Assembly: GCA_046563655.1 (NCBI GenBank) | Contig: CM102290.1 | Coordinates: 1,116,001 to 1,180,000 of the forward strand | Direction: 5' to 3' | Source of the DNA: Yuukianura sp. NJ FZ-2021 | Taxonomy: Eukaryota | Length of the DNA stretch: 64,000 bases | Shown here: piece by piece, positions 1 to 63,129 of the stretch | How the letters are laid out: every line of letters starts with the position of its first letter | How positions within the stretch are numbered: position 1 is the stretch's first letter | The notes under the pieces: generated by a model | Seen by the model: the letters and a program-made list of their open reading frames with translations, nothing else | What the model was told of the DNA's origin: nothing | Databases searched by the model: none | Program-made: the position numbers and the translations under genes

Positions 1-889
1 ACCTTTTACATACAAAAATGTATTTCCTTTCCATATTTTATGTTTTGACGTTTTGAGATTCATCTGCTTGTGACAGATACTATTTTTATACAAGATTTCT
101 CGAAACTCAAAAGCATTATGGCCACCACACACTTCTACTTTCTTATAAATGGAAATTAATAATTCTTCATCTTCGCCTTATTTCTGATTTGATCTCACTC
201 TCGACTTATTTAAAGCAAAATTACATCTTTAAGTTGGCACAACACATACTTTATAGACACGGTTCCACAAAACTTATGAACCCAAAGGTGTTAATTGAGT
301 GAATTGGCCTGGGGCGTTATTTACAAAAACCCAAATCCGGTTGAAATCAGCCACTTTTGCGCAAACGATGACCTTAACTTAAATCTTTGTTTTGGACGGT
401 GGTCGGTCATGTGTGATGAGCCTTGGTAAAACTTTAGTTTCGTAAATACAATTTTCCATTTGTCACCCCTTGACAATACGCATTGAGTTTTTGTGTCAAT
501 CCCATTTTCTGGTTCTGTGCAAAAGGTAAATTTATAACATATTTCGCAAAAGGCTTTCAACATCTCCCCTCGTTCCTAATTATGATTTACATGATTTTCA
601 TATCTTATTCCTTGATTGCAGCAAAAACAACTTTTTGACCACTTCCCCATCTTTGTTTTAAAGAATACAACAAAAGAGAATTGACAAGACAATCTCCTTA
701 CTCATCCCTCCGTCTTATGTCGAAATCCTGACCTGAATCCACTTTAAACTTCTACAACCTTAAAATACGTTTTCCACTATAAAAAGTTACAGTCTACATC
801 TAACCTAACCTTAACATTTGAGTGTGTACAGAGTAAAAAAGGGTTTGAAAGGTGCTGAATTCGCGTGGTGACGCTGGCTTAGTACTTAT

Positions 890-970
890 TTAGTGTCGTG
901 ATGGTAGAGGTGGTGGTGGCTCTTGTAGGCTGGGTGGCTTGGTAGCGGAAGCGTTTAAGGCTAACTGTCA
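890..970 (-). other. Candidate stop-codon readthrough extension of NLK (X-QLALNASATKPPSLQEPPPPLPSRH*)
   Basis: TGA (970-968) is followed directly by CAG TTA (CARYYA), then 25 open codons to TAA at 892-890. Confidence 0.55.
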
Positions 971-3900
971 TTCCCATTGATGCGGAGACGGTGGTAGCTC
1001 CGAAGGATGAGCCACGGTCGAACTGAAAACAAACAAAAATTTAAAAGTTATAGTTTATTTCTAAAATTTAAATTTTGAAAAGTGGAATTCCATATTAGCT
1101 ACGACATTATTTCGAATTACTGCGATTCGATATTTGTTGGCTATGTTTTCAAGTGTTGATTCAAAATTACAGTTTATTTAACTTGGAGGCTTTCGTTTTC
1201 GTTATGAGTTTTTTTCAAAGTTGCAACAATTAAAATTTCTCAACTTCCACCTCTTTCAACCCCGAGCCAAAGTAAGCAAAGTGATGACAGATTTCGCACA
1301 CTGTGTGAGCATAGTAGTCCCCCCATAGGCTAAAAGTGGTGTTGCTAACGTCAAGAAAGTGAAATCTTGTACGATTATGAAAGGTGTCGTCATTTCATCC
1401 AAGGAAAGTGAACCAAAGGGGAACAATGACTCCAAGGAAAAGAAAAGTTAACACTCCCGCTGCCACTTCCTACATTTTGACACTTAAATGCCTCACGAGT
1501 TCTCTTTTCCGAAGCATTTCGCTGACTAACACGTAAAGGAACAACAAATATGGCCACCAATTCCGTATAGCAGTCTGGCACGGCAGGCTCTGCGCAAGCG
1601 CAGCTATTCTAACCAGTTTCAGGACCAATCCAGCCTATGTACACACCAACCAACCTCATAATGGACTCCTTTGATTTACTTGGGTGAGCAGCAGAGGCCT
1701 TGATCAAATTCCACGATGGAAAAGCATGGAGCAGGAGAAAAGGCCTTCACAACTTTCCCCAAATTCTGGTTGACGTCACCCAAAGACCTACGCTAGCTTT
1801 CATTTCCACGAAACCTGTCTCTCTCCTGATGACTTCCAGCGAAGATCAGACCAAAAAAATATTAGATCTTCCATGCCTGAGCCACAACCACACCATCCAC
1901 CTCTAGTTTACAAAAACAAAAAAAAAGTTTACAAAGCGACACTTTGACCTTAGGACTAAGCGTAGGTGAACCTACGGTTGGAATGAAAGTTCATTTGAAA
2001 GTTCTTGCTAGCCCCACATTTTCGCCACCAGTCCCAGATTGGGTAATTTATAAACTGCAAACGTTGGCTCAATCGTGTCAACTTTTTTTTGTCATTTTGC
2101 ATACGCTAAAACTTTCCGGGCAAGAGGAATTGAGTGAAGTTTGCTTGTGTCTGAAAATCGGTGCTCAAAGACCCTCATCAAGTTGATTATGTTATTTTTT
2201 AAGGTTTGAATCTAAGCCACTCACCTTGTAAAACTCTTGAAAGCAGCCGAATGAGGATTGATACATAGCGGAGTTCTGTTGTTCTGAGCGTGGTCAGCCA
2301 CGAGGCGGTAGAGCTCTTCCTTGACTTGGCTCAGTGACATGATCTTCCGTTCCCAGCGATCATCAAAGGCTCGATCGGCACACGGTTCCAGGTCAGGGGC
2401 ATAGATGCGGATGCCAGTGGACGACGTTCGACAACAACGACACATGCAAGAGTGGAATCTGAGACGACCTTCGTCTAGGTACGGATGGTTCAGAGCGTCC
2501 TCTACATTCACTCGTTTCGACTAAAACCAGAAAAAAAAAATTAGTTTAGAAATCTAGTAATTAGAATTAATAATCTAGAAATTTAGTAATTACTAATATT
2601 TTTCACTTTGTAAGATGTTGTACTTTAAATAAAGTTAGCTTATTCTTCCACAAATGTTTAAAAAACTTTTCAAAATATTTTGTTAGAATTGTATTTAGAA
2701 AATTGTGTCAAGAGGCGACGGAAGGAAATGGTTTTGGAGTATTGAAACTATGGCCGGATAAGAAAAAAAAATGGGAGTGCTACATGAAACATGAAATCGG
2801 AAGTCATGAACCAGGTTCACTTCCGCACTTTTTCTCCTTATTGCAAAAATGGGTTTGTTGCATAAGTCTTTTACTACACAAAGTTACATCTGATATGTCC
2901 CATAATCGCTGCAAATCAAATTTCGTCACTCACGACTTTTGTCTCGAAAGTATACACTAATTACATCATCACCCATTGAATGTTAGTGTTTACCGGGTCA
3001 AAGACGAGCATTTGACATAGGAGATGTACTGCTTCCGGTGATGCTTGGGGTGATAAGGTGTAGAGTGCTGCTAGTGTAGAGGCCTTATGTGGCTTTTTGA
3101 GCATATGGGCTCGAGCTCCTGAACAAGCGGACCGAATGTCCTCTGGTTTCGGCGTCCCCAACAGATCAGATATCATGTCCAACTGTAACGAAAAAAGTAC
3201 AAAGAAACTTGGAATTATTTAGGGTACTACTGCTTCCATAGTTACCCGGATTCAAATTCATCATCCCCTACTCAAACACTGCGACGATTGAACCCTCTGT
3301 GTCCGGACATACTCTCTTTTAATATCATTCCCAACACACCATCATCAATTCATTCATTCAAAGGGCCCTCCAAGTCCCCCTCTCCATTCAAACGCTGCCT
3401 CCATGATGCATCCACCATTATTGGAAATAAGGGTTTTGGAGGACAGGAAGCACAGCGTCGTCATGACCCAAAAAATGGAATAATTTCCAAATGGAGATTC
3501 AGTCTTGGTGGTGAGTTCCCCCAAGTCCAGAACGTACTAACACAGAGGCGCTGGATTTTGAAATTCGAAAAAGTAAAAAAAAAACGTCAGAAGCTGGTAA
3601 CCCGAGACGAGTGTAAAGCTGAAGGCTACCCGGGAGGAAGTTAGGGGGGAGAAGAGGCACTTGACAGATGCAAAGGGAGGGTAGTGACTACTGTAACCAC
3701 TGATCATGAGGCCACCACCAGTCCTCTCTCAATCTACTAACATGGAACATACTTTCCCACACTTACTCAAAGTGTATTGTCTCATCTCCCTCAGATTCAA
3801 AACAGATTTAAATGAGGACAGGAAATGTTAAAGGCTCAAAAGGGGCTTTCACAACAGATCAAATAAACAGGCTCAAGGGGTGTGGGAACCTCAAGAGTCT

Positions 3901-6900
3901 TTACCCCTACTCCTGCCACCGCCATACATGAAACTAATAATTCCTAATTCACTCCATGTTAGAGTCGAACAACGTAAGGTCAAAGGTAATTACTATTATA
4001 CAGCACAACCGACAACACAAATGGTCCGAAACAGCTTGATGTGACAAACCTCGGCTTTGTGTTTGTTGGTAGCGGCGCAGAAGGTACTGGGACCGAATCC
4101 ACTACCAACTAATTAATTAAAAGAAAGCGTGAGAAATATTGGGAGTGGTGGGTGGGGACTTTTAGTCTATTGCGTTATGTTTTGAGACGATAGGCACTAA
4201 AAACATGGAACTTTAAGACCAGTCTGTATCCTACCTCTTCCTGGAATTAGTTTGGTTAAATTAATTATGCATGAGAAATGATTTTCCAATTCCTTGAGCC
4301 TATCTCGCTCTCCTATTTTCTACTGCCTAATCATCAAGGCAGGAGGGATTGTTTAGGAGTAGAAAGTGGTTTGGCACGCACTAGGGAGAGAAAGTTCCGA
4401 CGGAAGGGAGACGGAGAGGCCGAAAGCAGCGGGAAAGTATGGCAAAGCCTCATTTCAAAAATGGAATACTTCTAGGCAGGAGTGGAGAAACGACTTGATA
4501 GCAAGGCGTCGTCGTCGTAAGGAACACTTCCAGGCTCAAGCCTAACCTAAACCTAATGTAGGGAGAAGGAAAAGAGGCGATAGCTGTTTCGAAGAATCTT
4601 TTTTAGCGTCAGGGAGTCTCTCCTGCTAGTGCCAAAGGAGAAAGTTTTATTAGTTCATACGTATTTTCAGGAAAAGAAGAAACCTGGGTCCACGGAGGCG
4701 GCAGAAACCTAAAGTGTTCTTACGCACTTCCAACTTTAGACTATCCCGAACAAACTTACTTTTAATCAACAAAAAGTAAACATGGAGAAAGTGAATCTTA
4801 AAAAAATCAAGCGTAAAAATATACTTAAAAATCCAATTCCCAATTTACTTCTGAATAACCACCCTTCCTGCAATGCATCTGTTCATAAGGAAAGCGTGCA
4901 TCTCTTTTAATCCCAATTCAACAAGACTTTCCATCCGCCATCAATCAATACATGAATGACACACGCTTTCTCCCAGGAACAGATGCAAAGAAGCCACTTT
5001 CTACTGAACACTTTGCCAAGTACCCATACGGCCCTTTTGTTCAGCATAGTCCCCTTCAGTCACCCCTACCCTGCCAACAGTCCAGAAATTGAAATTAACA
5101 TCTAACATGCGGCTTAAGTAACGACTGTTTCTGCCAACTGCGACTTTTTAAAGTTTCTGAACCACAAAAAATTAAAAATTTTAGTATAGGCAGTATTAAC
5201 ACAAAATTAAAAAGTTGGTGGCTGTAATTTTCGCTGCTAAGAAGCGCTGAATAAGTTATTGCATTCATTCGATTTACGATTCAGACACACTCACTCCAAC
5301 AAAAGAAATCAAATCTCTTTATGAAATTTTAAAAGAAAGTAGATTTATAAAATTGGCGTACTTGCTGTATGGGCGTTTGAGCTTGAAATAAAATGCGTCT
5401 TCCTAGAAGTTCAGCAAAGATGCATCCGACGCTCCAAATGTCAACGGCAGACGTGTAGTGCTTAGCTCCCATGAGAATTTCAGGTGAACGATAGTACTGT
5501 GTGACCACTTCCTGTGTCATGGCTCGAGACGGGTTCGGCTCCTCTACTCGCGCCAGTCCAAAGTCACAAATCTTGAGGACACAGTTACTATTTACCAGCA
5601 AGTTACCAGGCTTGATGTCTCTGTGCAGAATACGGGCTGAGTGTAAGTATTTCAGTCCTAAAGTTAAAAAAAAATGTATGATTAACACGACTGTTTCATT
5701 TGGTTAATTCAGTTATATATTAGTTCAGTTTCCCGCGCCCACGGCGCGTTGCTAGGTTATTTACTGGACAATAGCTATTACAGATTTTTGGGTAAGGTTA
5801 AGTTATGTCTGTATTGTATCTCTTTCGTTGTAAATGTAATTCCACTTTCGCGGTAGTTTGCCTTCGCAGTAAATGAGCTTTCGAAGTAATTCGTTTCGCA
5901 GTAATTCATTCGATGAAATGGCATGCAACCGACAAAGGTTGACAAATGATGCCAAGGCTTTAGGTTCTGGAATTAACAAGGGCAACTTTCTCTGCATGTA
6001 CAAATCAATAAATCCTACGCTTCTTACGGTAACATTGCACCAACTCCTAATTGAACGAAAACACCAAAACATGATGACCTTGACATTATCCATTACCGGA
6101 GTACTCGTGCGTCACTCTGTTCCTACGTATACATGTTCCATCCGACGACTCAATTGTTTTTTTTTACCTTCACTCTAATTCTCATGGAGGAAAAAAAAAG
6201 TTTGCAACTGAATCAACAGTTTAGCAAAGCTATTTTTGTTAATAGAAAATTATTCCCAGTGACCCCTGATCTTCTAGGGACACATAAAAGGCATAGTCGA
6301 GACAAGGAAAGGTACGTTTGAGAGATTGTTAAGACGCTAGGTCAAGGGCGTCGTCTCGGTTGAGTGCTAAAAGTCCAAAGTGGTACCCATATACATTAAA
6401 TTGTTAGTTAAATTAAGTTAAGTCAACATAGAGAGCAGAACAGTAAATCCAGAAGACACTTTCGTGTGTCATTCTGGAAAAGTTCAAACGTAACAACGTG
6501 ACTTGTGGACCGTGCGTCTTTGGCTGACATCACACAAGTGCTTGGTAACTCCATTTACTCTAGACCTGACGTCACCTCCTATTGATTCTCACCAAGACTT
6601 ACTCAAACAGACAGTTTATCATAGACACTTACACCTCACCCACTCCAGTATAAATTGGATCTTCAAAAGTCAATTATCTCTGCCAACTTATGACAAAGCA
6701 TGATTATTCACTTCCAGTAACTTCCAACACTAAAAGTAAAGTACGTAAGTTCACAAGACGTCATTTCCACAATATCCGATGGAGCTGACCAAATGCACGA
6801 CCTCACAAGTGAAGTCATGTTGGTTGAGCGCTTCCTTTGACTCGTCGGATAATACGCAGCTTCATATTGGTTAATGCTACTTTAACAATGTACTTTTCAA

Positions 6901-9900
6901 GGTTCTGTTTTGAGTACCAACAAATTTAAGATCAAGGACCCTGGATCTGACGCCATGAGAGTTCCCAGTATTACAAACCAATCGTTAAACAAATAGACTT
7001 AAAATTCACAGAAATTTTTGAGCACTGGAAACAAAAGTTAAAAATTGTGTTTTCTTACATGAAAAAGACGTAAATGGAATCACGTCACTAGTTTGTGTGC
7101 TGCTTCTGTGTATTTTATCTGCTCGTGTATATCTGTATGTTAGTATTGAGAATGATTGGCGAAAACAAGTTGTTTTCGCGAAACTCATGCTTCGTTATTT
7201 TTATTTATTTTTTGTAAATCGACGTATTTCAATTTGCAAAAAAACAGGTAAAACAAAGTTTCCAAAAATTCTATTTCCGAGAAAAAATTTCGCCGAATTC
7301 TGGAGACGCGTCATTTTTTTTTTGTATGCAAATTGTTTCTCGCATTGAATTTCATCTACTTTAGTTTCAGCAGAAACTCAATCAATGGGAATCAATCTAT
7401 CCAATTTGCCCTAAACCTTTCAGATTTGGAAATTTTTAACTGTTTTGCACAACTCCACATGTCAGATAAATAATATAATAGATTATATAAAAGTTGACCT
7501 AAAAATTTATTGAGTAATGATCAATATAAATATCGTACCTCTGAGAATTTGGTATAGAAAGACTTTGATGTGATCGGCAGACAGATGTTGTGGTGAGACA
7601 ATGATTTTGTGCAGATCACTCTGCATCAGTTCTGTAATAACATAGCTAAAAAAATCAAAAAACAATATCAGACAAATGAATGCTACTCCCGGAATTCCGG
7701 GTATCAAAATTTCGACAATTCTTTAGAAAGTGGTTAATTTGGCCACAAAGACTGTTTCGGCTAATGTTAAAATTTGAGGTGACTTTCGTACATTTCTTGG
7801 AAGAAATCAATATGCGGTGGTTGGAGAATGTCGAGGGCCGAGAGGACATTGTCATGTTTGAAGAAGCACAACATTCGTAGTTCTCGACAGACTCGACGGG
7901 CGGATACCAGTGATTGGAACACATTCGGTAACTTCTTCAGAGCAACACGCTTCCCGTCTCGTGGATCTGTGACGGCCCTGCAAAAATAAAAAATTAAAAG
8001 CGTTATTTTCACTGTCTAATTTTAAAAAAATCTCTAAAATCCAGCATCAGTCTCTGTTGCTTTTTGTTTTTGAATTTCATAGAGCTCGCAAAAGAAACGT
8101 TGAAAGTGAAAAGTTTCAATCTTAAATTTTGAGACGCAACTTTCAAGTTCTACTTATAACGTCATGTGCTACTTTTAAATTGCCTTCCTAACCAAATAAA
8201 TGTTATGAACAACGAGATGCAGTTTTCGTTTGCACATTTAGTGACAAAAAAGACTGTAGTACGACGGAAGCCCAATCTTGAATTTTGCAAGAATTGTCAT
8301 TTTTGATTAAAAGAGAAGTCTTGTGTTTTGTGTATTTGGGAGTTCTACTGACACACTTTTTGTGTCTTTTCTCTTCCTAAAGGTCATTCCTCAAAGCATG
8401 CATCGTGCTTCATATGTCGTAACAAGACCCAATTCCTAACCATTACCATTATTCACCACCTAAGGACCAAATACTACTCACCCTGTGATTCCTTAAATAA
8501 CAATCAGCCTACTGCCCACACATCTTTAGAATACAGTGTACTATGTTCAAAACCAGTTCACAAAAAACGTTTTTTTTTTCCACTACAGCATACTAACTAC
8601 GCGGGAGGAGTTCAAAAACGCTTGGAGAGTTTAGTCAAAAAGTTTCTTCGGGACTGACGATTAACCTGTTTAAGAAAACAAGCCATCCACTCCTTCAATC
8701 CACATCAGCCTTGACCCCATTCCAACCTCACCTCAACTCCCCAATTTCAAACTAAACAGAAATTTTGAGGTTCAAAACAAAATTTGTAGGTTGAGAAGAA
8801 ATTCGTAGGTTCAAAATTTGTAGGTTGTGTTATTGATTTGAGTATATGTTAGGGATGGAGCCTTGGATTCAGTAATGACTACGGTATTCAATTTGTGTTT
8901 CCATACGTGTTGATGACCCATTTCCACAAATAAAAGGTGAATAATAGTAGAGTGAAGCAAGGGCTCTGATCTTCCGAAGCTAATAATAGAATCAAATTCC
9001 CTCTAGGAATAGAAATTGGGTTAGTCATTCTTGGAGAGAAGTTTGGAATTGGAATAGGCCCAACCAGAAATCAGTGTCTTTTGGAACTAACTATTGAGAG
9101 CCTACAAAACCTACGCCAATTGACCTACAAAACATTCAATTACTCATTCCCAATTCCCATAGTGTTGGAGAGTCCTTCGAATGTTCGGAGCATCTTCCCA
9201 ATTCCAATCCAATTCCTGGGTCACAGCAGTTCTGGCCAAGTCGGAACAGGAGAGCATAGTTCGTTTGACCCAATTGGCAACTGACTTCATATGTTATTAT
9301 TAGTAATTACCTGCAAGAGCCTAAAATTATTTTAGTTGGCAGCACAAGTCGTCTGTGGCCCTGAACACTTCAGTTCAAGGCCCAACCAGTCACAGTCTCC
9401 CTACATTCCTCATTCCCAAACGCACTTTTCCTAATACAGGCCGTTGTCGTGCTGAGAGACTCCATTTTCTTAGCTCCTAGCTCCCTGTACAATTTTATGT
9501 ACACAAAAACTAAACGTTCACATCATACGCACCTTTCAAATTCAAATCCCCCCGCGGAATTTCATAAGGTGGAAAAGCCTTATTTCAGGCTGGCAACAGG
9601 CATTGGAAAATTAATTCGGATTACAAAATTTCAAAAATTTTCTCATCAACATGTTCAATACAAATGCCAGATTTCGTTCCATTTCTAAAAAAAAGTGAGA
9701 ATTTCTCTTTAGTTTTTAGTTGTTAAACAATCTTAATGACATTTCCGAGGTTTTTGAATCGACAATGAGTGACTTGGTGCAGACTTTAAATGTTTTTTGA
9801 CTGAATTTGCCGCTCATAATCTTGAATAATCTGCCTTAACGGGTCTTTAAAAAAAGTAAAATGGAGTAAACAGAGGATGCTCCACAGCGATTTCTGTTTT

Positions 9901-21900: not shown

Positions 21901-23899
21901 AGAACAAAATGGCATTGACCTTGGTGGAAAGTACTAAAAATCTAGGGGACTATCCATGTTGAAAATGACTAAAATTGGGAACAGAGTTGAGTCTGAGTGG
22001 GATAGCGGCCAGAGTTAAAGTGGAGGTTAAGTCCAATGGGAAAAGCCTTCGGAAAGTATAACGGGTAATTTAGATTAGATGACAACGGTTCTCCAGAAGT
22101 GTCAAATTTAATTATCAGAGCACCAGGCACAAAACCATTAACCACACAAGGCCAGTTCAACATTATTATATATTTACCACCTCAACTATAACTTCCACCA
22201 CCAACGAAGAAGCCTTGCGTCGCCTTCTGCGTTGTTCCAGGATAAGATTCTACTATGCCTAACAGAGGCTTCACTTTTTAGTTAACAGTTCATTCCAAAT
22301 TAATCCTCTAAACAGAATTCAATTTTAAATTTGACGACTTCAAAGTATGTACTAAACTGTGACGTCAGTTGCAAAACTAATTTAAAATTAAGTGCATAAC
22401 TCAACTGAGCTTTGCTTACGTGTAGCACTTGTCAGACCCAATTTTTACATTTCTTGTAGTAGTTTCAGGAATAACCCAAAAATAAAATTGTGCAAAAAAA
22501 ATTAAACTTCCGGTTACAAGAAAAAACTATTTTGGAGTGCATACTGGAAAATTAATTGAAAATTTTGCTGAACTTTTGGAAAAATTGCGTCAGGAGGGAA
22601 ATAAACAAGCTAATACGTAGGAGTCAAATCAAACGCTGTCAAGTGACTGACGTCAAACGCCTATAAAAAGGTTAACCAAAAAGTACAAACTGTAATTTGA
22701 CGCCATACATTTGTTTTTCACGAAAAAAAAAACTAATAATTTTAACACTTCCTAAAATTTCAAGAGGGAGAAAGTACTATTATAAATTCAAAAATGAGTA
22801 GGCTGAAAGTGTAGCGTTCCACTAACGGACGTTTGGTTATTCATGAATCTATGATTGATCTCAAGGTTAAGTTCAAAAAATTTGAATTGTGAAGAAACAG
22901 AAAGAAGGTGACAAGACAGTAGTGTAGCATGGCAAGTGCAGTGGGAGGTTTAGAAAAACTGTTTGGAATTGGACTTTGTCTAGTTTAAGAATTGAGAGCG
23001 TGTTGGAAAATAAAAAAAAAACTGAAAAAGTTGGAAATTACGTTGAACGAAATTAGGAAAAGCCTTGACATTTTCCATGAAAAACTTTAGGTTGGAATCC
23101 CACAAGTAAATTTGCCACTTCTGAGCAACGCTGAACAATTTCTGAAGCGGTCTGGAATAAGTAAATAGGGCTTAACAAGGATATGTCGTCACTAAACAGT
23201 TCACCCTCTTACGCGCCTCCCACAACCTTAAAACTTGTGAACAATTCTGAATTTTAGACTCAATTAACGTTCCCACCAAACTTCACTTTTCTTAAACCAA
23301 CTCGCCAACTTAGCAATTCTTTGCAATCGATAAGTGAATCCGATCCCAAGTTAGGAATGAAGGATGAGCATAAAGTCATAGATGCTTTGAAAAAACTTTT
23401 GAAAGTGTTAAATAATACTCATTTATAGTCTCCTTCAAGGAACTTAAGTTGCGAACTTTGGAACGATGTTGTAAAAAATATAATTTGAAACTTACCAAAC
23501 GACTCCAAATGCTCCGTACCCAATGGGTCTATCCGGCTGAATGTCAACTGGAGATGAGCGTTCAGATCCACTATTAGAATTAGTATTGTTGCTGCCATTA
23601 ACATTTGCACTAGAGGCACTGGGCGTTCCATTTGACCCATGAAATGATCCCAACATTGATCCAGTTCCTGTTGCACTTTTGATCACACTGCCCCCTGGGC
23701 CCTGATTACTTCCAGAAGAGGACACATGAGCTTGTGGTGGGCCTTGGGACCCTTGACCTTGACCTGACGCTGACGAATTGGAGCCAGTTCCATTGTGAAA
23801 GTATGCTGCGGCAAGAACGGCTTGTTGATGATGCGAGTGATGGTGGGCGTGCGGATGATGACCCATCATTGGGGCTGCTGGACCCGCCAAAGTTGACAT
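968..23899 (-). CDS. NLK: Nemo-like serine/threonine kinase (MAPK family), 7 coding exons, ~510 aa
   Basis: Exons (minus strand): 23899-23496, 7977-7792, 7645-7539, 5657-5362, 3182-2994, 2520-2225, 1022-968. All introns are GT-AG and phases match; total 1533 nt. The N-terminus is His/Ala/Gln/Ser-rich. Motifs include [25 protein letters not shown], the NLK-diagnostic activation loop [11 protein letters not shown], the C-terminal [10 protein letters not shown] and [12 protein letters not shown]. Intron 1 is ~15.5 kb. Confidence 0.96.
19832..20040. mobile_element. Small MITE-like foldback element with TTCGAA-rich arms and a central CCTAA/CCTAAA tract, in NLK intron 1
   Basis: Imperfect terminal inverted repeat ATGCCGTTGCTTCGAA / TTCGAAACAATGGCGT, with repeated TTCGAA units in both arms. 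Its right end ATGGCGTGCT is shared with the element at 35183-35458. Confidence 0.5.
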
Positions 23900-26800
23900 T
23901 TCCAACTAAACAACGCTTTACAGTTTCAAATTGAGGGAATCCTCAAACTCCGTTAAATCCTCCCGCCAGGAAGGTTTGCAGTTCAAAAGTAAAATTCAGC
24001 GTATTGGACACTTTGTGGTAAGATTCAGTTCAGGAGTGAAAGGACGAAGAGATGCGAATGACGCAAGGTGATTGACTTGCACTTTGTTGGTGGCTGGGGT
24101 GTTGACCTGTGTTTTCTGTGAGACCCACTTCCGTTCCTATGACAGTGGTCGACTACTGGTGCACTTTGACCCGAGTGACCTTGACCTGTGTCAGAGTAGA
24201 TGTCGTGGGAAACGGTGTTGGTCTACTGTTGGTTAAGTTTAACTGCTAAGATGTGGTTCCCCCAAGCCCCAACTGCTATCTGAGGCCGTGGCAGAGAAGC
24301 GTAGTGGGAATGATTGTGATTTCCCTTCTGATGGCGAGGAGCTACAAATCCAAAATCCCTCCCAGCCCAAAGCATAACGCACTGCACTGCCAACTTTACA
24401 CAGCAAAGTTCCCCTTATTGTCTCAGCATTAGCCAACCCACCACCAGTACCGTAAAATTCTAAAATATACCATGCTTAATAAACTACAGTCACTTTTCCA
24501 GTCATACGTCAGCAACTGTACACTAATTTCGTGACAAGCCTCTTTCTAACGATTAATGTGTTCATATCCAATGGATAGATTAAAAAAGAAGAGTAGTTCA
24601 ATTTCTGTTAATTTGTGAATTATTTCATTTTTTTTTCATTTCCGTCTTTTCGAAATTAAAACCAACGATACTTTCCCAGAATTTCGAATTCGAAGAAATT
24701 CGAATGATAACTGAAAAATAGTCAATTTTGAAATTAAAATAGAACCTCGTTCATCACTAGATATACCGTACAGTTTACACTTTTACACAGTTTACAGTTA
24801 GGCAAATTAAACACTGATTGAAACGTTATCAATTCAAGCTAACTAAATTAGGTTAGGTTATTTAATCAAATAGACATACGGAAACAAAGACAAAGCACTT
24901 TTTGTTTTAAAATCAGTTTCTCATAATTTTTGAAACCAAAAAATCATTTTTTTTTTAAAAAAAATCTTTCAAAACAAATCCACCAAAGTTCATGTTTGGC
25001 CTCTTGTAGAAATTTTCCGGTACTCCGTTCTCTGGTGCTGTAGTGAGGCTCTGGGAAAGTTTTATCAAAAAAATTCTTCTAGTCCACCACCACCGCCATG
25101 GAAGGCAGGCACTGACAACGGTGAAAGGATCGATCCCCTCCATAGCCTTTTGGAAACACAACCAAAATCCACTTTTTGGTTCAAAAACCTCGTTTTGTCC
25201 CTAATTTTAGTATTTTAAATTTAGAGAAACAAATGGACACAAAAGGACCACGGTGAACTGGGGTTCTCTAGCCAACAAAGCTCTACAAAGTTCTTGGAAG
25301 CCAGTTTAACCTTAATTTCCTCCGCTTCTACCGCAATTACTCGCCGTATACTTAACGAGCACTCTGACAAGTGCAATAACCAAAGAACGTAGATTTTTTT
25401 TTTTTTTGCAAACACTGCCATTTAGACTTATGGCTTCCATGGACACCCTAAGCTCTGGTGGCAAAGAATTTGCAAAATACAGTCCATCTTACTTCTTCCA
25501 GTTCAAAAGGAAGCCTTCGACCTTTCTCCGCAGCAAAACTTGGAAAGTTCAATATGGTTTTGTCCTCCTCCAACAAAAAATTCAACACCAAGTTTTACAA
25601 CCGGGCATTTCCGCCACGAGTCCAACAAACTCTGTTTCCTTATTTCTGTTTTCCTGGAAGAACCGCTAGTTTAGATGCTCTACACCTTCACCGCCCTGCA
25701 TAAAGTTTCTAATGAAATTGTGCATAGAAGTACCTGCCAAATTCGGTTCTATCCAACAGACACTTTTTTTAACTTTTCTTGGAATGAAATAAAGGAAACC
25801 CTTTGATCTTTTCAGTCTATCCGAGAAACGTCTTCTGATAAAGTAAAATCCCGCCGCAATTCTGCATCTTTTGCACTTGTCTGATTCCAAAAAATTGATT
25901 CGTGGAATCAAGCGCTGTACTGAACTGTTCAAAATGTCATAAGTGAGATAATGGTCACAAAGCTGACTTTTCTGCAACTGCAACCAATGTGGAAGCCAAT
26001 CAATTATACCTTATTCAATTGACGTCACAAGGGTCACGTAAGGTCAGAACCTTAGTCCAAACATAATGAAGGTAGTAAATCCGAAGTTGCAACTTCTTTT
26101 TCCAGAAATTTGATTTATCTGATACAATTTTTGATGAACCGAGTTGGAATGGAAGTGTTTAGAACTACAAGTGCTCACAGTTCAAAGAATCAAAAATGAC
26201 AAAATATTTTTAAACTTAATTTATGTCATGCTTTGACTTGGTACAATTTATGTCCCCGGTTGGCTGTATATCTCTTTGTTCTATCGCATCGACTAAACAC
26301 TTCTTGCAATTCATCTATTCGTACATGTCACATTAAAACACATGTTTTTGACGACTAATGCCTTTGCACTTTCTTCAAAGAACTTTTCAGAATGAATTTT
26401 GTTGTGTCAAAAAAATAAAGAAAATGAGTCATACTTTGAATAAAATGAAGTCAGTGAATTGAGATCAACAATTGAAATGCAAGGATGCAACATGAAATTT
26501 ACAATTACATACAACTTACAAAACTTAAGTTCAATTGTTGCTTTTGAAAATGTGGCGCCATCTTTGAGCATAGTAAGCAGATTGGCTCAAAAAACCACTA
26601 TCCATCACATCATTTCTGCAGTATTTCTTTTCAAGGAGGCGTCGCACATCCTTATGAAATAAAATTTTTACTTTTTGAAATCACTAATCACTTAAAACTG
26701 CTAGCATAACCACCCATTTCATTCATTTCATAAACATTATCGAGATTTTATCAAAAATTTATTGATTCGTTTAAGCCTCAATCAAAGTAATAATTAAAAA

Positions 26801-44359: not shown

Positions 44360-47300
44360 TTACAGTAAGAACCCCAGCCCAGCTGATGATGGCGGATTCT
44401 TCTTGCTTCCTAATGGGGTGTCCATTTTGGACATAATCTTGGACAGGAGATCAACTGGAGCACTAGCTTCAAACAACTTCCGACTCACATTGCTCCCATT
44501 CTTCTTCAGAATTATTTCTCCTAGAGCTGAGCTTTCGTTTGCGGATCCCTTCGTACCTTCGCAGCCTCCAGTATTAGACTTCTTAGCTGCACTTGGATCT
44601 TGAGCAGCACCTTCCGTTGATACGTTTCCCACGGCTTCTAAGGGCTGTTTCACCTTCCCATCCCCGATTCCTTTGGAATGAGAGCTTGAAGAGCTCTGTC
44701 GTACTTTATCACGGTCACGGTGGTGGCTGTTCTTGCTTTTGCCGTGACTTTCAGAGGGGCGATCCTTCTTGGAAGAGTCCTTTTTCGAAGTATTCGAATC
44801 TGTATTAGCATCCTTCGGATTAGCATCCGTTGGCTTCTTCACAGCTAATTGGTCTGCATTGTTGTCTACCGAACCATCTTTACTACTTTTGGAAGAAACA
44901 TCCACCGATTCTTTGTTTTTAGATCGTTCTGCCGAGCTTTGGCGGCGGTGGCTCGATGCATGTCGATCTGATGACGATGTTTTTTCGGAATGCTTGGATG
45001 AAGAATGAGAACTTGATCCGTGATGACTCTTGCTTCTGGAACTAGAAGAATGTCCATCCTTTCGGTCCTTTGAATGATGATGGGAGGACGAAGAAGATTT
45101 ATGCCCTGACTTACTAGACCCATTTCCATGGCTGCTGGAACTTTCATCCTTTGACCGTACTTTATTCTTGTCGTGGGAATTGGACGTAGTCTTTTCCCCC
45201 TCCAAAGTAGAGCTGGATTTGTGACGACTCTGATCACCATTTGGAGTTTTCGATGAATGAGAAGATCGCTTCTCCGACGTATTGCTGCTGGACTTATCCT
45301 TATGGGATCCATGTGTTGTTCCTGACTTGCTAGAGCTATGGCGACGAGATTCTGATGTGGAATGACTCGACTTGTGTACTTTTTCTGAGTGCCGAGACAC
45401 AGAAGATTCACTGTGTTTGGTTGGCTTAGTGGTGTCCGATGTATCTCCAGCGCCTTCTACCGACGATTCAATCTTGACAGAACTCTTGTCTCGTCTTTCG
45501 TCTGACCTATGTCGCTCTTTATCAGTCTTCTGCGATTTGTGTTTACTGTCACCACTTGATCGTTTTCTATCTTTGTCCTTCCTGTCTGACTTATTTTCGC
45601 TGGATTTGTGAACATGTCCGTTGGTCCCGCTTCCTCTATTTTCCTTGCTCTTTGTATGTTCTGTCTTTGATTTCTTCTTCAGTACGTCATTCTTAGACGT
45701 TGGTTTGCCTTCTTTGCTTTTGTGACGAACGGTTGGAAATTTAGATGTCTTTACAAGTTCAGGTACCCAATCCTCGTCGTCGTAGTCTTTACGTGGTTTC
45801 TTTTCTGGTCGCTTCGTAATCGGAAAATGTCTAGCCGCTTCAGCCCGAGGAGGATTTGTGGGAGGTTTCCTAATCAGTTCTCCAGTAGAACTCACTCGAA
45901 CTTCCGGCTGAAGTACAGGCATTGAGTTTGGTTGATAGTACTGCTTAAGTCGAACATGCCACGCTGAAAGGTTACAAAAAAACTATTCAGTAAACAAGGT
46001 TATGGGTGCCGCTAAATGTAGGTTTTTATGTCGCCTACCTATACTTGTTACTGCTGTCACTGTCCGAAATTGATGAATAATGTTGCGCGGAAGAAAATAA
46101 ATACAATTGTCTTCAAGCTGGATTCTGGCATAACGTATGCCTTCCCTTCGCAGTTGGTTCAATTTCGCATCTTCTACCCATTGAATGCACTGAAAGAACA
46201 AATGGTATTATTTGAGATTGGAATGGCAAAAATCAAGTCTAGGAAAAAACAAGACAAGGAAGAACTGTATTAATTACCTGAGAAATGGGAGGTTCATGTA
46301 GATCTAACTGCAACTTTTCGACAAGCGTGTAGAAATCCGCTGCATGAAACGCCACCACATCTTTGGTAATTCGATTTAGTTGGTACGGTTCACCGCAATG
46401 GACGGCTTTCAGCACTCCTAAAAGAGAGTTTAATGTAACCAATGAATGACAAATACCGATTGGTTCATGATAATCTTCATACCAACGGCAGCACAAGTAC
46501 GTCTTTCAATTCCATTGTCGACATGATCAGCGTGACATTTAGTCCGGTCCTCACACATCATTTCCCTGGCCTCGGACACTCTTGGAACATACAGAAGATT
46601 CCGTAGTTCATTGATCCCAGTGCTATAAAGTACAAATGATACATATCTGTAAATCAAACTGTCATCATATGTAATGTGTGAAGACAAAAAACCCGAAACC
46701 CAGTCCCAAACTGCTTCCGTTTGCCAACTTTTGCTTATGTCTTAAGAAACAGAACAGTGATCAAGGTCCGACACCAATGTCACCGTAGGGGAACATGAGT
46801 CTGGACAGCGATGGCATACCGTTTTCGTTTAGACGGAGATCCTTTATCTCGTTCTGTAGGAATTAGTTGCTCGCCAGGACGTATCCAGAAGATGGGGCCA
46901 TCGTTGGAATCTTGCGGCCTAATACCGTGTATAATTGAGTCGTCTCCCCACGGCATCGTCTACCGGAAGAACAAAAACAATCAGCTGACGTTACGTACTA
47001 ACTTTTACTAGAGACATTTTTGATTTGGTTACCTTTTTCAAAAACGAATTTTGTTCCAACAACGAGAGTAAGTCTGGGAAATAGCCACCGCTTTCTTCTC
47101 CTACTGCTCCTACCAAGCTAATTTGTTGCAATGGACCATACCGGAATGTACCACTGGAGTAATGGGCGTGAACCTAAACCAATAAAGACTTTAATAATAT
47201 TTTTCATTAATAGCGATTATGATACCTGCTGGTTCACATATCACATATCATATTTGTTCACAAAATTGTTTTATCACTGCCACATACTCCTGGCAACCTA

Positions 47301-50300
47301 ACTGTAAAAAAATAGTGGAGTTTTTCTACCAAGCTATCAGCGAAAAAAAACGAACGTTTTTGCAGAAATCTCAAGTTGCCCCAACCAAGGCAACTAAACA
47401 AAAAGACACACCGCATTACTATTATAAACAATCCGCCCCACCAAAAAATTTCACCCAAAAAGCTGAAAAAACCGCTCGTGAGACTACCTTATGCTCGTAA
47501 CATAATGCCGGATCACGGTGATCCGATCATGAAAAGTTGAACCGATCACCCTGATCCCTATACATAATGAGTCTCGAGGTCATCGGTGACCCGCTCACGT
47601 AAACCTCGGATCAAAAATTTGTTTGATCCCTCGCTCAGGGTTATATTCGTATACATAAAAAAAGTAAACCGGATCACTATGATCGGGATCAAAATTCGTG
47701 ACCCTGGTATAGGGGTAGGTTCACCACTTGATTCAACTGGAATTATTTTAATTTTTGTTTAGTATATTCTTTTCCCACGAGTTAAGCGTTCAGTTTTATT
47801 AAGGAGTTTGCGTTATAAATGTCAGAAAAAACTTATAGAATTTATAGAACTAAAGTTTTTATATAAATTTCAACTTTTGTACAGTTTGCGTCAACTGACT
47901 CTATAAAAATTATGGAACTTAAAACGCAGTGTGTCTGCGCAGTATATGCGCAGTGCTTGCGCAGTGCGCAGTGCTTGCGCAGTGCGCAGTGCTTGCGCAG
48001 TACTTGGGCAGTGCGCAGTGCTTGCGCAGTACTTGCGCAGTGCGCAGTGCTTGTGCAGTACTTGGGCAGTGCGCAGTGCTTGCGCAGTGCGCAGTACTTG
48101 CGCAGTGCGCAGTGCTTGCGCAGTGCGCAGTGCTTGCGCAGTGCGCAGTGCTTGCGCAGTACTTGCGCAGTGCGCAGTGCTTGCGCAGTGCGCAGTGCTT
48201 GCGCAGTGCGCAGTGCTCGCGCAGTGCTTGCGCAGTGCGCAGTGCTTGCGCAGTACTTGCGCAGTGCGCAGTGGTTGCGCAGTGCTCGCGCAGTGCTTGC
48301 GCAGTACTAGCGCAGTGCTTGCGCAGTATATGCACAGCATGGCCGCATTTTGTCCCATTAGTTTCCTATTTTGTTCAGAAATTAATTGAATCATTAACTA
48401 TTTCGTTAATTACTTTAATAAAACACAACAAAAATGGTGTTGTGTTATAGAAAGTTTTAAAACTTTGCCACCTGAAAATAAAAGGAGCATTAAACTTGTC
48501 ACATTTTTAATCAACATAATACATTGTTGTTGAAGTATTTAAATGTGGCATGTAAAAATGAGTAATCCGATGATCACGTTCAGGTGAACCGGATTTACAA
48601 ATCCACCGCTCAAGATTATATTATGTATACCGTTCACGGATTAGTGTGATCCTGACCCCCGGATCGGTCTCACCAAATCCTGATCCGTAGGTTACGGGTG
48701 AACCGTCATTATGTATACGGGCATTAGTAATGCGGTGTGTCTTTTTGTTTAGTTGCCTTGGTCCCAACTACATTCGAGATTGAATGAACATTGTTTATTA
48801 AGTAGCGAAAGTATGAGCTACTTTATGTTTTTCCCCGAGTCTGTCTGTCTGTCCGTCTGTCCGTCTGTCCGTCCGTCTGCTGGTCAAGCTACCTCTGGAA
48901 CCGCTGGACCGATTTTCAATCTGTCTTTACAGATGAACTTGACATGGTCTGGGGGTGAACAATCGGTGACCCGTTTGACCGGAAGTAGACCCCTTAAGGG
49001 TCAAAGGTCAAGGTCAAATACATTTTTGACAGAAATCGAGAAAATGACCTCTACAAAAGTTGTTCATCTCATTGAACTGAACAACTTTTGTATAGGTGAC
49101 CTTGACCTTTGACCTGGGGTTCTGGAGATATAGACCTTAGAAGTTGCATAATGGGGTCGCTCGTGCTATTCGCGTCTATAACTCCAGAACCACTGGAGCG
49201 ATTTTCAATCTGTCTTCACATTTCTACTTCACATATTCCAGGGGTGTCTAATCAGTATCCAGCTTGACCGGATGTTGTCCAGGTCCGGGTCAAAGGTCAA
49301 GGTCAAATACAATTTTGACAGAAATCGGGAAAATGACCTATACAAAAGTTGTTCATCTCATCGAGACGAACAACTTTTGTACAGGTGACCTTGACCTTTG
49401 ACCTAGGGTTCTGGAGATATAGACCTTGGAAGTTGCATAATGGCGTCGCCCATGCTATTCGCGTCTATAACTCCAGAACCACTGGACCGATTTTCAATCT
49501 GTTTCCACATTTGCGTTTCACATATTCCAGGGGTGTCTAATCAGTGTCCAGCTTGACCGGAAGTTGTCCATGTCAAGGTCAAAGGTCAAGGTCAAATACT
49601 TTATTTACGGAATTCGAAAAAATGACTTCTACAAAAGTTGTTTATCTCATTAGGCTGAACAACTTTTGTAAAGGTGACATTGACCTTTGATCTACGGTCA
49701 CAGAGATACAGACGATAGAAGTTGCAAAATTGCGTCCCTCGTCCTACTCGGGGAAGCATGACCTACTTTATGTTTTTCCCCGAGTCTGGCTGTCTGTCTG
49801 TCTGTCCGTCTGCTTGTCTGCCTGTCTGTCCGTCTGCCTGTCTGCACTATAACTATACCTCCGAAACCCCTGGACCGATTTGCAATCTGTCTTCGTAAAT
49901 CGGTTTGTCATAGCCTGGGGGTGATTAATACGGCTCCGGTTTGACCGGAAGTGCACAAAATCCGGATTGTGTGCTCTAGCTTCCTTTCGCTACTTACGTA
50001 CGGCGTTTACTACGGTTTATTGAACAACAGAAGGTAAATAACTAAAGTCAAAAATATTTTAAAATGAATTTAAAAATGAATTTTAAAAAATCAGAAAAGG
50101 CTCGTAATTGACTTTTCAGTTTTTTTTAAATGTCATTTCTTAAATTAATTTCAAACATTTTGAACTTTGTTAATTGTATTCTTCAAACAATCTTGAATGT
50201 AGTTGGGGCGATGCGAGACTTGCAAAAACTTTCGTTTTTTTCTCTGATCGCTTAGAAGAAAAACTTCACTAGTTTTATTTAACGTTAGGTCGCCAGCAGT

Positions 50301-61139: not shown

Positions 61140-63129
61140 ATGAATTTCTCAAAGTCTTTTATAAGACGGAAAGGTCATCCTGTTCCGGATTACGTTACGT
61201 TCGTATTGCAGCGGAAGAAGCATACAATGCGACACTTGTTTCGACCAACAGTGGTAACTCATGATGCTCAAAGTCCAACTAAAATGGATGGTGACACTGG
61301 CTCGAAGAGTTACCGGGTAAGCCCTGGAAAATTGGCTAACAGTGATTTATTTTGTAGATACCATAAATTTCTAGGAAAAGCGAGGAATTAATTCGACGTT
61401 CTATTTTCGTTTTCAGTTGATGACACAACTCGGTTTGATGAAGGCGTCGAGTAGTGGAATGTATAATATGTTGCCGGTTGCTCAAAGGTCGTTGGAGAAA
61501 CTGAATAATATTATTGACAACTTCATGCGATCAGTAAATGCTCAAAAATTGCAGCTTCCTACGCTCACCCCGATGACGTTATGGGAGCGATCAGGTACTA
61601 GCGCTGAATGGAATTAATCACAATTACTAAGCCAATGCGCAACTATTGTTATGTTTAAATCCTTAAGTGACTTTGTTTTTGATTTTTAGGCCGTTTGAGT
61701 GAATGTGATTTGGAACTCATGAAAGTCACTGATCGTCAGTCCCGGAAATACATCCTAAGTCCGGTGATCCATCAACTCTTCCCACTTTAATGGAATTTGC
61801 AAAATTCACGAGTTCAATGAGATGATAAACTTTAGTGATTTTGTTCTCGCAGACACACGAAGAAGCTGTATGCGATTTACTTCAAGGGACTCAGATCAGT
61901 CATAAGCAACTACCGTTGAGGCTATACCAGACTACGAACAAATTCCGTGATGAAATTAGACCAAGATTTGGATTGCTGCGTGGTCGGGAGTTCCTGATGA
62001 AAGATCTATATACATTCGACAAAGACTCCGACAGTGCGAAAAGAACTTACGAAGAAGTAAATGCCGCTTACGCTGCACTTTTCAATTTCCTTGGAGTGAA
62101 ATGGGTCAAAGGTATACAAACAAGACATTTTTTTTACTGTTTGATTACAGATTGGCTAGTAAATATTAATGGAGGGTACTTGTGGTATTTTACAGCTCAG
62201 GGTTCAGCGGGAACAATTGGCGGTGACACTACTCATGAGTATCACTTCGTATCGGCTGTCGGGGAAGATCAAATTCTGATTTGTCGAAACTGTGCTGAGC
62301 ATTTTAATAAGGAATACATTGACAATGCGGGTGCTCCAAGTCTGGACGATACTAACCGCGAAGGTGATTCTGCGCAATGCTTCAACTGTGGTTCTCAAGA
62401 CTTCGATAGAATTGCTGGAATTGAGGTAAAAAAAATGTTATGTTCCTATCATGCTTTTGTTTTCGGAGGTTCATGATTATCGTTTTCATTTTTTACGTAG
62501 GTTGGACACTCCTTCCTTCTCGGAATGAAGTATTCAAAACCAATGAAAACAACATTCATTCACGCCAATGGGAAACCTGCTCTCTTGGAAATGGGCTGTT
62601 ATGGTCTCGGCGTTTCTCGAATCTTAGCTGCTGTAATTGAAGTTTTGTCCACAAATACAGAGATTCGGTGGGCGTTGCCACTGGCTCCTTATTCAGTTGC
62701 CATAATTCCACCAAAGGTGACTAGAAACGTTATTCATTGCCATTAAAAGTATTAGTCAATTTACCCATGTACTAGGATTTGTAAAGAAATACATTTTTCT
62801 TTGGCTTCTTTTATATTTAGGGTGGAAGTAAAGAAGAAAAAATTGGACTTGAGTTGTCGGGAGCACTTCTTGACTACTTCGATAAACTTCTGCCTAACGA
62901 CGTCCTTCTTGACGACCGATCGGAGTTTACAATTGGGAGGCGCTTTACAGATCTCAAGCAAATGGGAATCCCATACGTCATCGTTTTGGGCAAGCGTCTT
63001 ACTGAGAAGCCAAGTGTAATTGAATTTCATGATGTGTACAATGGGATTATAACTGACTTGACAAAGGATGAAGTGTTCAAGTATTGTTATGAGTTGAAAG
63101 ATCGGATGAGTAGTAGTAGTCGTAACTAA
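61140..63129 (+). CDS. PARS2: Mitochondrial prolyl-tRNA synthetase (bacterial-type ProRS), 7 coding exons, 480 aa
   Basis: Exons 61140-61316, 61417-61594, 61690-61763, 61853-62111, 62196-62425, 62501-62716, 62821-63129 (1443 nt). Motifs LWERSGR, LSPTHEEAV, QLPLRLYQTTNKFRDEIRPRFGLLRGREFLMKDLYTFD, GIEVGHSFLLGMKYS, MGCYGLGVSRILAA and the anticodon-binding domain DVLLDDR...IGRRF. Confidence 0.95.

Follow-up and report, generated by a model that had tools for sequence, protein, structure and literature searches.

The NLK gene of the window

The minus strand of the window, by which we mean the whole stretch of 64,000 nucleotides that was analysed, carries the 3' part of an NLK/nemo kinase gene (Table 1). 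Searches by tblastn with named arthropod NLKs returned seven segments running from 23554 down to 971, with ~75% identity to branchiopod, horseshoe-crab, insect and mite proteins, and the same seven segments are 87% identical to a metatranscriptome protein, P0001. The 18-residue C-terminus matches residues 418-435 of the Limulus NLK P0045 with 100% identity (tblastn, 1024-971), and after splicing the C-terminus is identical to that of P0001. The penultimate exon ends with TTT ACA AG, directly before the GTGAGT donor; because the split codon AG+T restores a Ser and the spliced C-terminus matches that of P0001, the last exon is the true terminal exon of the gene. The NLK homologues that we found carry precomputed Pkinase Pfam domains, and a Pfam scan with the two C-terminal exons alone gave no match. 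Judged by homology, the gene product is a serine-threonine kinase of the NLK/nemo family, with a MAPK-like kinase domain and the conserved C-terminus.

The stretch is where the NLK/nemo gene ends in an arthropod that is probably a pancrustacean. A quick, unfinished single-gene tree placed the window, together with one of its relatives (L001), inside a clade of branchiopod, copepod-like and hexapod sequences (SH-aLRT 96), a position within Pancrustacea that is weak evidence for the taxon. A U12-type donor like that of Drosophila nmo was also considered and rejected, RTATCCTTT being absent from the window; in the FlyBase 'rule-benders' supplements, nmo is named only for its U12 intron (PMC4528330).

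Table 1. Coordinates of the NLK exons and of the candidate readthrough region in the window
Feature	Position	Strand	Basis
Second in-frame stop, TAA	890..892	-	Sequence; the L034 tail also closes with TAA, after 26 codons
In-frame 25-codon tail, QLALNASATKPPSLQEPPPPLPSRH	893..967	-	Translation; alignable to the L034 tail, HLAASDASTKPTLQPSLAPPPEDNRR
Hexamer CAGTTA, fits CARYYA	962..967	-	Sequence; L034 has CATTTA, 5/6 bases the same
First stop, TGA, next base C	968..970	-	Sequence; TGA-C also in L034
Terminal NLK exon, coding part, 52 bases (third base of the split Ser codon first; ends PPSPHQWE)	971..1022	-	Sequence, tblastn
Last intron, GTGAGT donor, TTTTCAG acceptor	1023..2224	-	Sequence; unalignable with the L034 intron
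Penultimate NLK coding exon (5' boundary approximate)	2225..2517	-	tblastn 2517-2227; 79.7% nucleotide identity to L034
NLK coding exon (boundaries approximate)	2994..3185	-	tblastn and comparison with L034
NLK kinase-domain exon (boundaries approximate)	5359..5658	-	tblastn, 91% identity to Limulus NLK over 100 residues
Two NLK kinase-domain exons, 7991-7788 and 7656-7525 (approximate)	7525..7991	-	tblastn
First coding exon region: His-rich N-terminus and start of the kinase domain	23483..23905	-	Open frame 23492-23905; tblastn 23554-23483

Between positions 890 and 970, contigs of run X1 are identical to the window, and contigs of run X4 (organism B) reach 898 and restart at 983, a gap that takes in the stop and all but six bases of the tail (899-970). 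At position 989, in the last NLK exon and the site of the only difference nearby, the contigs of both runs carry T in place of C on the plus strand, a synonymous change (CCG to CCA, Pro); since it occurs in both runs, the window assembly carries a minority or alternative allele.

The stop codon, its context and the open frame behind it

The preliminary description of this DNA had the conserved C-terminus PPSPHQWE running into TGA, CAGTTA, 25 open codons and TAA, and this reading is correct to the base; the matches of CAGTTA to CARYYA and of PPLPSR to PxxPxR were likewise confirmed in the window sequence. These features of the tail are real, and the hexamer is the only one that is individually uncommon, with 258 occurrences of CARYYA on both strands of the window, or ~1 per 496 positions. 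Of 5114 random 75-base stretches drawn from the window, 1374 (27%) have an open frame of 25 codons, and shuffling the C-rich letters of the tail itself leaves the frame open 55% of the time. Frame +2 is open over the tail stretch too, and PxxPxR arises in 6% of shuffles of the tail residues. The tail contains no ATG.

The CARYYA consensus and its origin in tobacco mosaic virus (TMV) are set out in Loughran 2014, according to which UGA-CARYYA in an OPRL1 reporter gave ~15% readthrough in human cells and all six bases matter (PMC4132726); the TMV context itself is tabulated as UAG CAA UUA (PMC13517186). As had been proposed, the stop of the window belongs to the leaky UGA-C type and is followed by a hexamer of the TMV type. 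It resembles the type I signal of TMV in that CAGTTA fits CARYYA immediately after the stop, without a downstream structure, whereas it differs in that the stop is UGA rather than UAG, the hexamer is unconserved and the product would be a 26-residue tail rather than a second enzyme domain.

A second comparison is offered by the mammalian genes with UGA-CUAG readthrough, which Loughran et al. in 2014 reportedly identified as OPRL1, OPRK1, AQP4 and MAPK10, the last a member of the MAP-kinase family. As in these, a cellular gene in the window ends in UGA-C, and beyond that stop lies a short conserved extension, reached by predicted readthrough; unlike in these, the motif is CAGUUA and not CUAG.

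We found no sign of an RNA structure downstream of the stop: the window fold has z = 0.14, the corresponding fold of the nearest relative (L034, described below) has z = -2.0, and the two share no fold. A permissive Rfam scan of window positions 1-1100 gave no SECIS and no other family, with 0 matches at E<=1. Because there is neither a stable or shared structure nor a SECIS, readthrough at this stop, if present, would be driven by context alone. The same scan bears on the idea that the UGA encodes selenocysteine, for which the identity of the codon speaks and nothing else; since TAA or TAG also stands at this position in other lineages, the chance that selenocysteine is inserted here is negligible.

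The stop position in other NLK lineages

The position of the NLK stop was compared among 116 homologues, 91 of which end exactly at W[ED], so that the stop position must be very old. Five run beyond it, and the 20 that lack the motif represent alternative last exons, intron read-in or truncation. In two NLKs, P0078 and P0099, which are presumably chelicerate-like, the usual terminal exon is replaced by an alternative one that ends VAVYGCCM.

At the nucleotide level, metagenome contigs were scanned with an alignment built from C-terminal stretches of 70 residues; this yielded 80 loci, and the 73 with the C-terminal motif fell into 51 clusters. A sense codon occupies the stop position in three of these clusters, and the other 48 have TGA (30), TAA (14) or TAG (4). 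The commonest four-base context is TGA-C, found in 11 of the 48, a prevalence that is a hint and not a test, given clusters that are phylogenetically non-independent and a count that comes without a background frequency. CARYYA follows the stop in 0 of the 51 other lineage clusters. The next relatives of the window after L034 differ from it: L001 has TAA-C and four further codons, while the stop context is TGA-T in both L002 and L003, whose downstream frames are unrelated. The tails of other lineages are unrelated in sequence to that of the window.

Protein searches gave the same picture of a tail confined to the window and L034. A word-based search of 5.8 billion proteins with the read-through peptide (TGA as X) returned 30 matches at E<=10, all of them through the 17 conserved residues, and a profile search of 1.84 billion representatives returned 10 matches, the best of which, P0140, has an unrelated tail; no further homologue of the tail was found in these 5.8 and 1.8 billion proteins.

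Several observations on other lineages were made in the course of these searches. In mite-like loci, a Ser codon lies exactly at the NLK stop position (L020:1135-1290, L021, L022, L070, TCC; L077:2709-2840, TCA), and the transcripts continue into a shared tail, SPPRPVDRRRTTTTNIFAESTDYC or SPARSDRRRIMTDTEFC, which forms a constitutive C-terminal extension. This extension begins at the same position after HQWE as the tail of the window; unlike the latter, it is constitutive, has no stop before it and is of unrelated sequence (SPPRPVDRRR...C; SPARSDRRR...C).

In another group of loci (L019:1831-1880, L032:1800-1850, L029:716-760, L033:884-930, L079:73-115 and L030:558-585) the C-terminus is HHWE, the stop context is TGA-C, and the tails are short and close with RHT[LV]A. 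These loci, which are presumably copepod-like, have a conserved block, ACAYGGCATTTYAA, after the second stop, and L030 shows a 15-base in-frame shortening. Their use as a coding test (L019 and L032 against L029, L033 and L079) was abandoned as non-discriminating, as UTR conservation continues past the second stop.

Finally, seven protein fragments of the NLK last exon in public collections (P0117, P0118, P0123, P0126, P0140, P0141 and P0143) were called with TGA as Trp and run through the stop. Four of these fragments (P0117, P0118, P0126 and P0141) have Gln, His, Pro or Leu immediately past the stop; codons for Gln, His and Pro must begin with C, and those for Leu may. The insect-like P0118 has a tail of seven residues before another W, and this short tail is unrelated to that of the window.

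Comparison with the nearest relative

The nearest relative found, L034, is a genomic metagenome contig with the same exon layout as the window. Of the 115 residues in the last two coding exons, 107 agree between the two, as do 278 of the 345 bases, with mismatches at the three codon positions numbering 8, 3 and 56. Only 16 of 48 four-fold sites in these exons are identical, so silent sites are saturated between the two sequences. Despite this saturation, L034 keeps TGA CAT TTA, then a 26-codon open frame, HLAASDASTKPTLQPSLAPPPEDNRR, and then TAA.

Of 3000 random noncoding pairs, 0.03% reached the nucleotide alignment score of the two tails, as did 0.27% of shuffles; the peptide score was reached by none of the 3000 pairs, and by 0.1% of tails shuffled by letter and 0.8% of those shuffled by codon. 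In global alignment the frame 0 peptides scored 45 versus 20 and 19 in the other frames, and in local alignment 42 versus at most 28, a comparison of two sequences only. The similarity is significantly above that of the nulls, but the nulls do not separate coding from noncoding constraint. Among the 23 aligned tail codons, in an alignment whose gaps are whole codons by construction, five are identical, seven differ synonymously and 11 nonsynonymously, and mismatches by codon position number 10, 8 and 14, a mild third-position excess. The two tails have LA, TKP and PSL in common, as well as a run of PPP and, close to the end, an Arg. The pattern suggests a weakly constrained coding tail and, coming from two sequences, falls short of proof.

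Of the features whose conservation in relatives the preliminary description proposed to check, the TGA-C and an alignable in-frame tail are kept in L034, and the exact CARYYA is not, either in L034 (CATTTA) or in the other clusters. Since the third base of the hexamer deviates in L034, TGA-CA.TTA describes the conserved signal better than CARYYA does.

Two further stretches conserved between the window and L034 lie outside the coding exons. A 26-base island deep in the presumed NLK 3' UTR (391-416, minus strand) is 85% identical to L034:3048-3073 (E 0.001), which means that noncoding islands are conserved in the same UTR and that the conservation beside the stop could be noncoding as well. A 39-base block at 2787-2825 (minus strand), which corresponds to L034:559-597 with 87% identity, lies within an otherwise unalignable NLK intron.

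Readthrough candidates already listed in Diptera

The preliminary description knew of no account of readthrough for NLK, and here it was mistaken. Supplemental_Data_S1 of Jungreis et al. 2016 lists two ancient TGA-C candidates in this gene, nmo-RH of D. melanogaster (FBtr0333223), with a readthrough region of 9 codons, and AGAP005898-RA of A. gambiae, with one of 8 codons; in that table each is marked as the readthrough ortholog of the other, with 'Stop Orthologous: Yes' and 'Ancient', and for nmo-RH the table has 'Yes' under 'Found By Homology' and a blank under 'Jungreis 2011 Transcript' (PMC5100048). As given in the table, both entries are computational predictions only (PMC5100048).

Worked out from the intervals of the table, the last exon of nmo-RH and of AGAP005898-RA comprises 52 coding bases plus the stop. 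Because the terminal exon of the window has the same 52 coding bases, its TGA is orthologous to the dipteran stop. The dipteran candidates thus share with the window the gene family, the layout of the terminal exon, the TGA-C and, to go by an empty column of the table, the absence of a predicted RNA structure; they differ in the length of their tails, which at 9 and 8 codons contrast with the 25 proline-rich codons of the window.

In print, as far as the texts searched are concerned, readthrough of NLK exists only as these rows of a supplementary table, that is, as a comparative prediction. The main texts of Jungreis 2016, of Dunn et al. 2013 and of a 2026 preprint on Drosophila readthrough do not mention nmo; a full-text literature search for 'nemo-like kinase' with 'stop codon readthrough' returned no paper, and a further search on readthrough and Drosophila nemo returned none that, to judge by title or abstract, was about nmo.

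Proposed selected readthrough and its alternatives

We favour, with a probability of about 0.5, a model whereby selection maintains low-level readthrough of the NLK stop in the lineage of the window, giving the kinase a 26-residue tail. On UGA-CAG-UUA, eRF1 would compete poorly, and a near-cognate tRNA, which at UGA supplies Trp, Arg or Cys, would decode the stop in a small share of ribosomes. Translation would then run on for 25 codons and end at the TAA at 892-890, so that a minor isoform of NLK would be longer by 26 residues at its C-terminus. The signal would depend on context only, a downstream RNA structure being neither needed nor seen. Selection would keep the tail in the window lineage and its nearest relative under weak constraint, the conserved parts being LA, TKP, PSL and the PPP run and not the SH3-type motif. 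The place of the window within Pancrustacea in the single-gene tree fits this model, abundant readthrough having arisen in that group according to Jungreis 2016 (PMC5100048).

Much of what can be held against this model speaks for ordinary termination, in which the conserved stretch would be a noncoding element of the 3' UTR (a site for an RNA-binding protein or a microRNA, for example, or a tuning of the termination context) and the open frame would simply follow from a sequence rich in C and poor in T. Open frames come easily at this composition, as the shuffles show, and frame +2 is open in both the window and L034; the third-position excess of the tail is mild beside that of the coding exons; L001, L002 and L003 share none of the feature. 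Conservation is also found elsewhere, in the UTR island at 416-391, in the intronic block at 2825-2787 and, in the copepod-like loci, past the second stop. Against ordinary termination, however, stand the frame 0 peptide score, ~2 times that of the other frames, the TAA that closes the frame at nearly the same place in the window and L034, and the leaky UGA-C with CA.TTA, which is kept despite the saturation of silent sites. The stop is, in addition, orthologous to a published ancient readthrough candidate listed in the table of Jungreis 2016 (PMC5100048). We therefore consider ordinary termination possible, if doubtful.

Other points weigh on selected readthrough alone. The tail is known from two sequences, between which nonsynonymous differences outnumber synonymous ones by 11 to 7, and it has no further homologue in the proteins searched; the hexamer of L034 departs from CARYYA at position 3, whereas all six bases matter in the reporter work (PMC4132726); and the dipteran entries are computational, the Drosophila one having been 'found by homology' in the table (PMC5100048).

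The rapid evolution of the tail, its restriction to the window and L034 and its complete unlikeness to the tails of other lineages would also fit a low-level leak from a leaky context, with a functionless tail on which constraint acts only to keep an accidental product harmless, a possibility discussed in Jungreis 2016 (PMC5100048). By an argument found in the same paper, however, a useless product would favour a tighter stop context (PMC5100048), and between the window and L034 the TGA-C and five of the six hexamer bases have persisted. A leak of this kind is in our judgement unlikely.

The proposed SH3-docking tail

The preliminary description went further and proposed that the tail links NLK to SH3 adaptors, PPLPSR being a class II SH3 ligand that would dock a share of the kinase. 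The motif is indeed present in the window, and the tail is proline-rich in both the window and L034. The L034 tail, however, has neither PxxPx[RK] nor [RK]xxPxxP, so PxxPxR is limited to the window, and the proportion of shuffles of the tail residues that contain the motif rises to 12% if K is allowed. What speaks for docking is thus a motif that composition alone yields fairly often; the hypothesis is unsupported by the comparison with L034, and we regard it as highly improbable.

A broader version would make readthrough of the NLK stop old across Pancrustacea and not a feature of Diptera alone, with each lineage evolving its own tail and, in the lineage of the window, a proline-rich docking module (PPPPLPSR, with a PxxPxR core) recruiting a sub-population of NLK to SH3-type adaptors in an amount set by termination efficiency. 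Taken as a whole, this scheme appears decidedly improbable.

NLK/nemo modulates Wnt, Notch and planar-polarity signalling, and a readthrough isoform, if it exists, would add a form of the kinase that is regulated and of low abundance. The finding is of modest value: it carries a prediction tabulated for nmo of fly and mosquito over to a lineage that is distant and probably pancrustacean, and it shows TGA-C to be the commonest context at the NLK stop among the 48 lineages with a stop. The tail itself turns over quickly, and no new mechanism is opened.

Other features of the window

Outside the NLK gene, the region 47842-48450 consists of tandem repeats with several open frames on both strands, whose translations are repetitive (CALRKH and AQCAVL). 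A 540-residue open frame rich in Ser, Lys and His lies at 44360-45982 on the minus strand, and an open frame on the plus strand at 61829-62476 contains a motif that, named by eye, resembles a class II tRNA synthetase of the Pro type.
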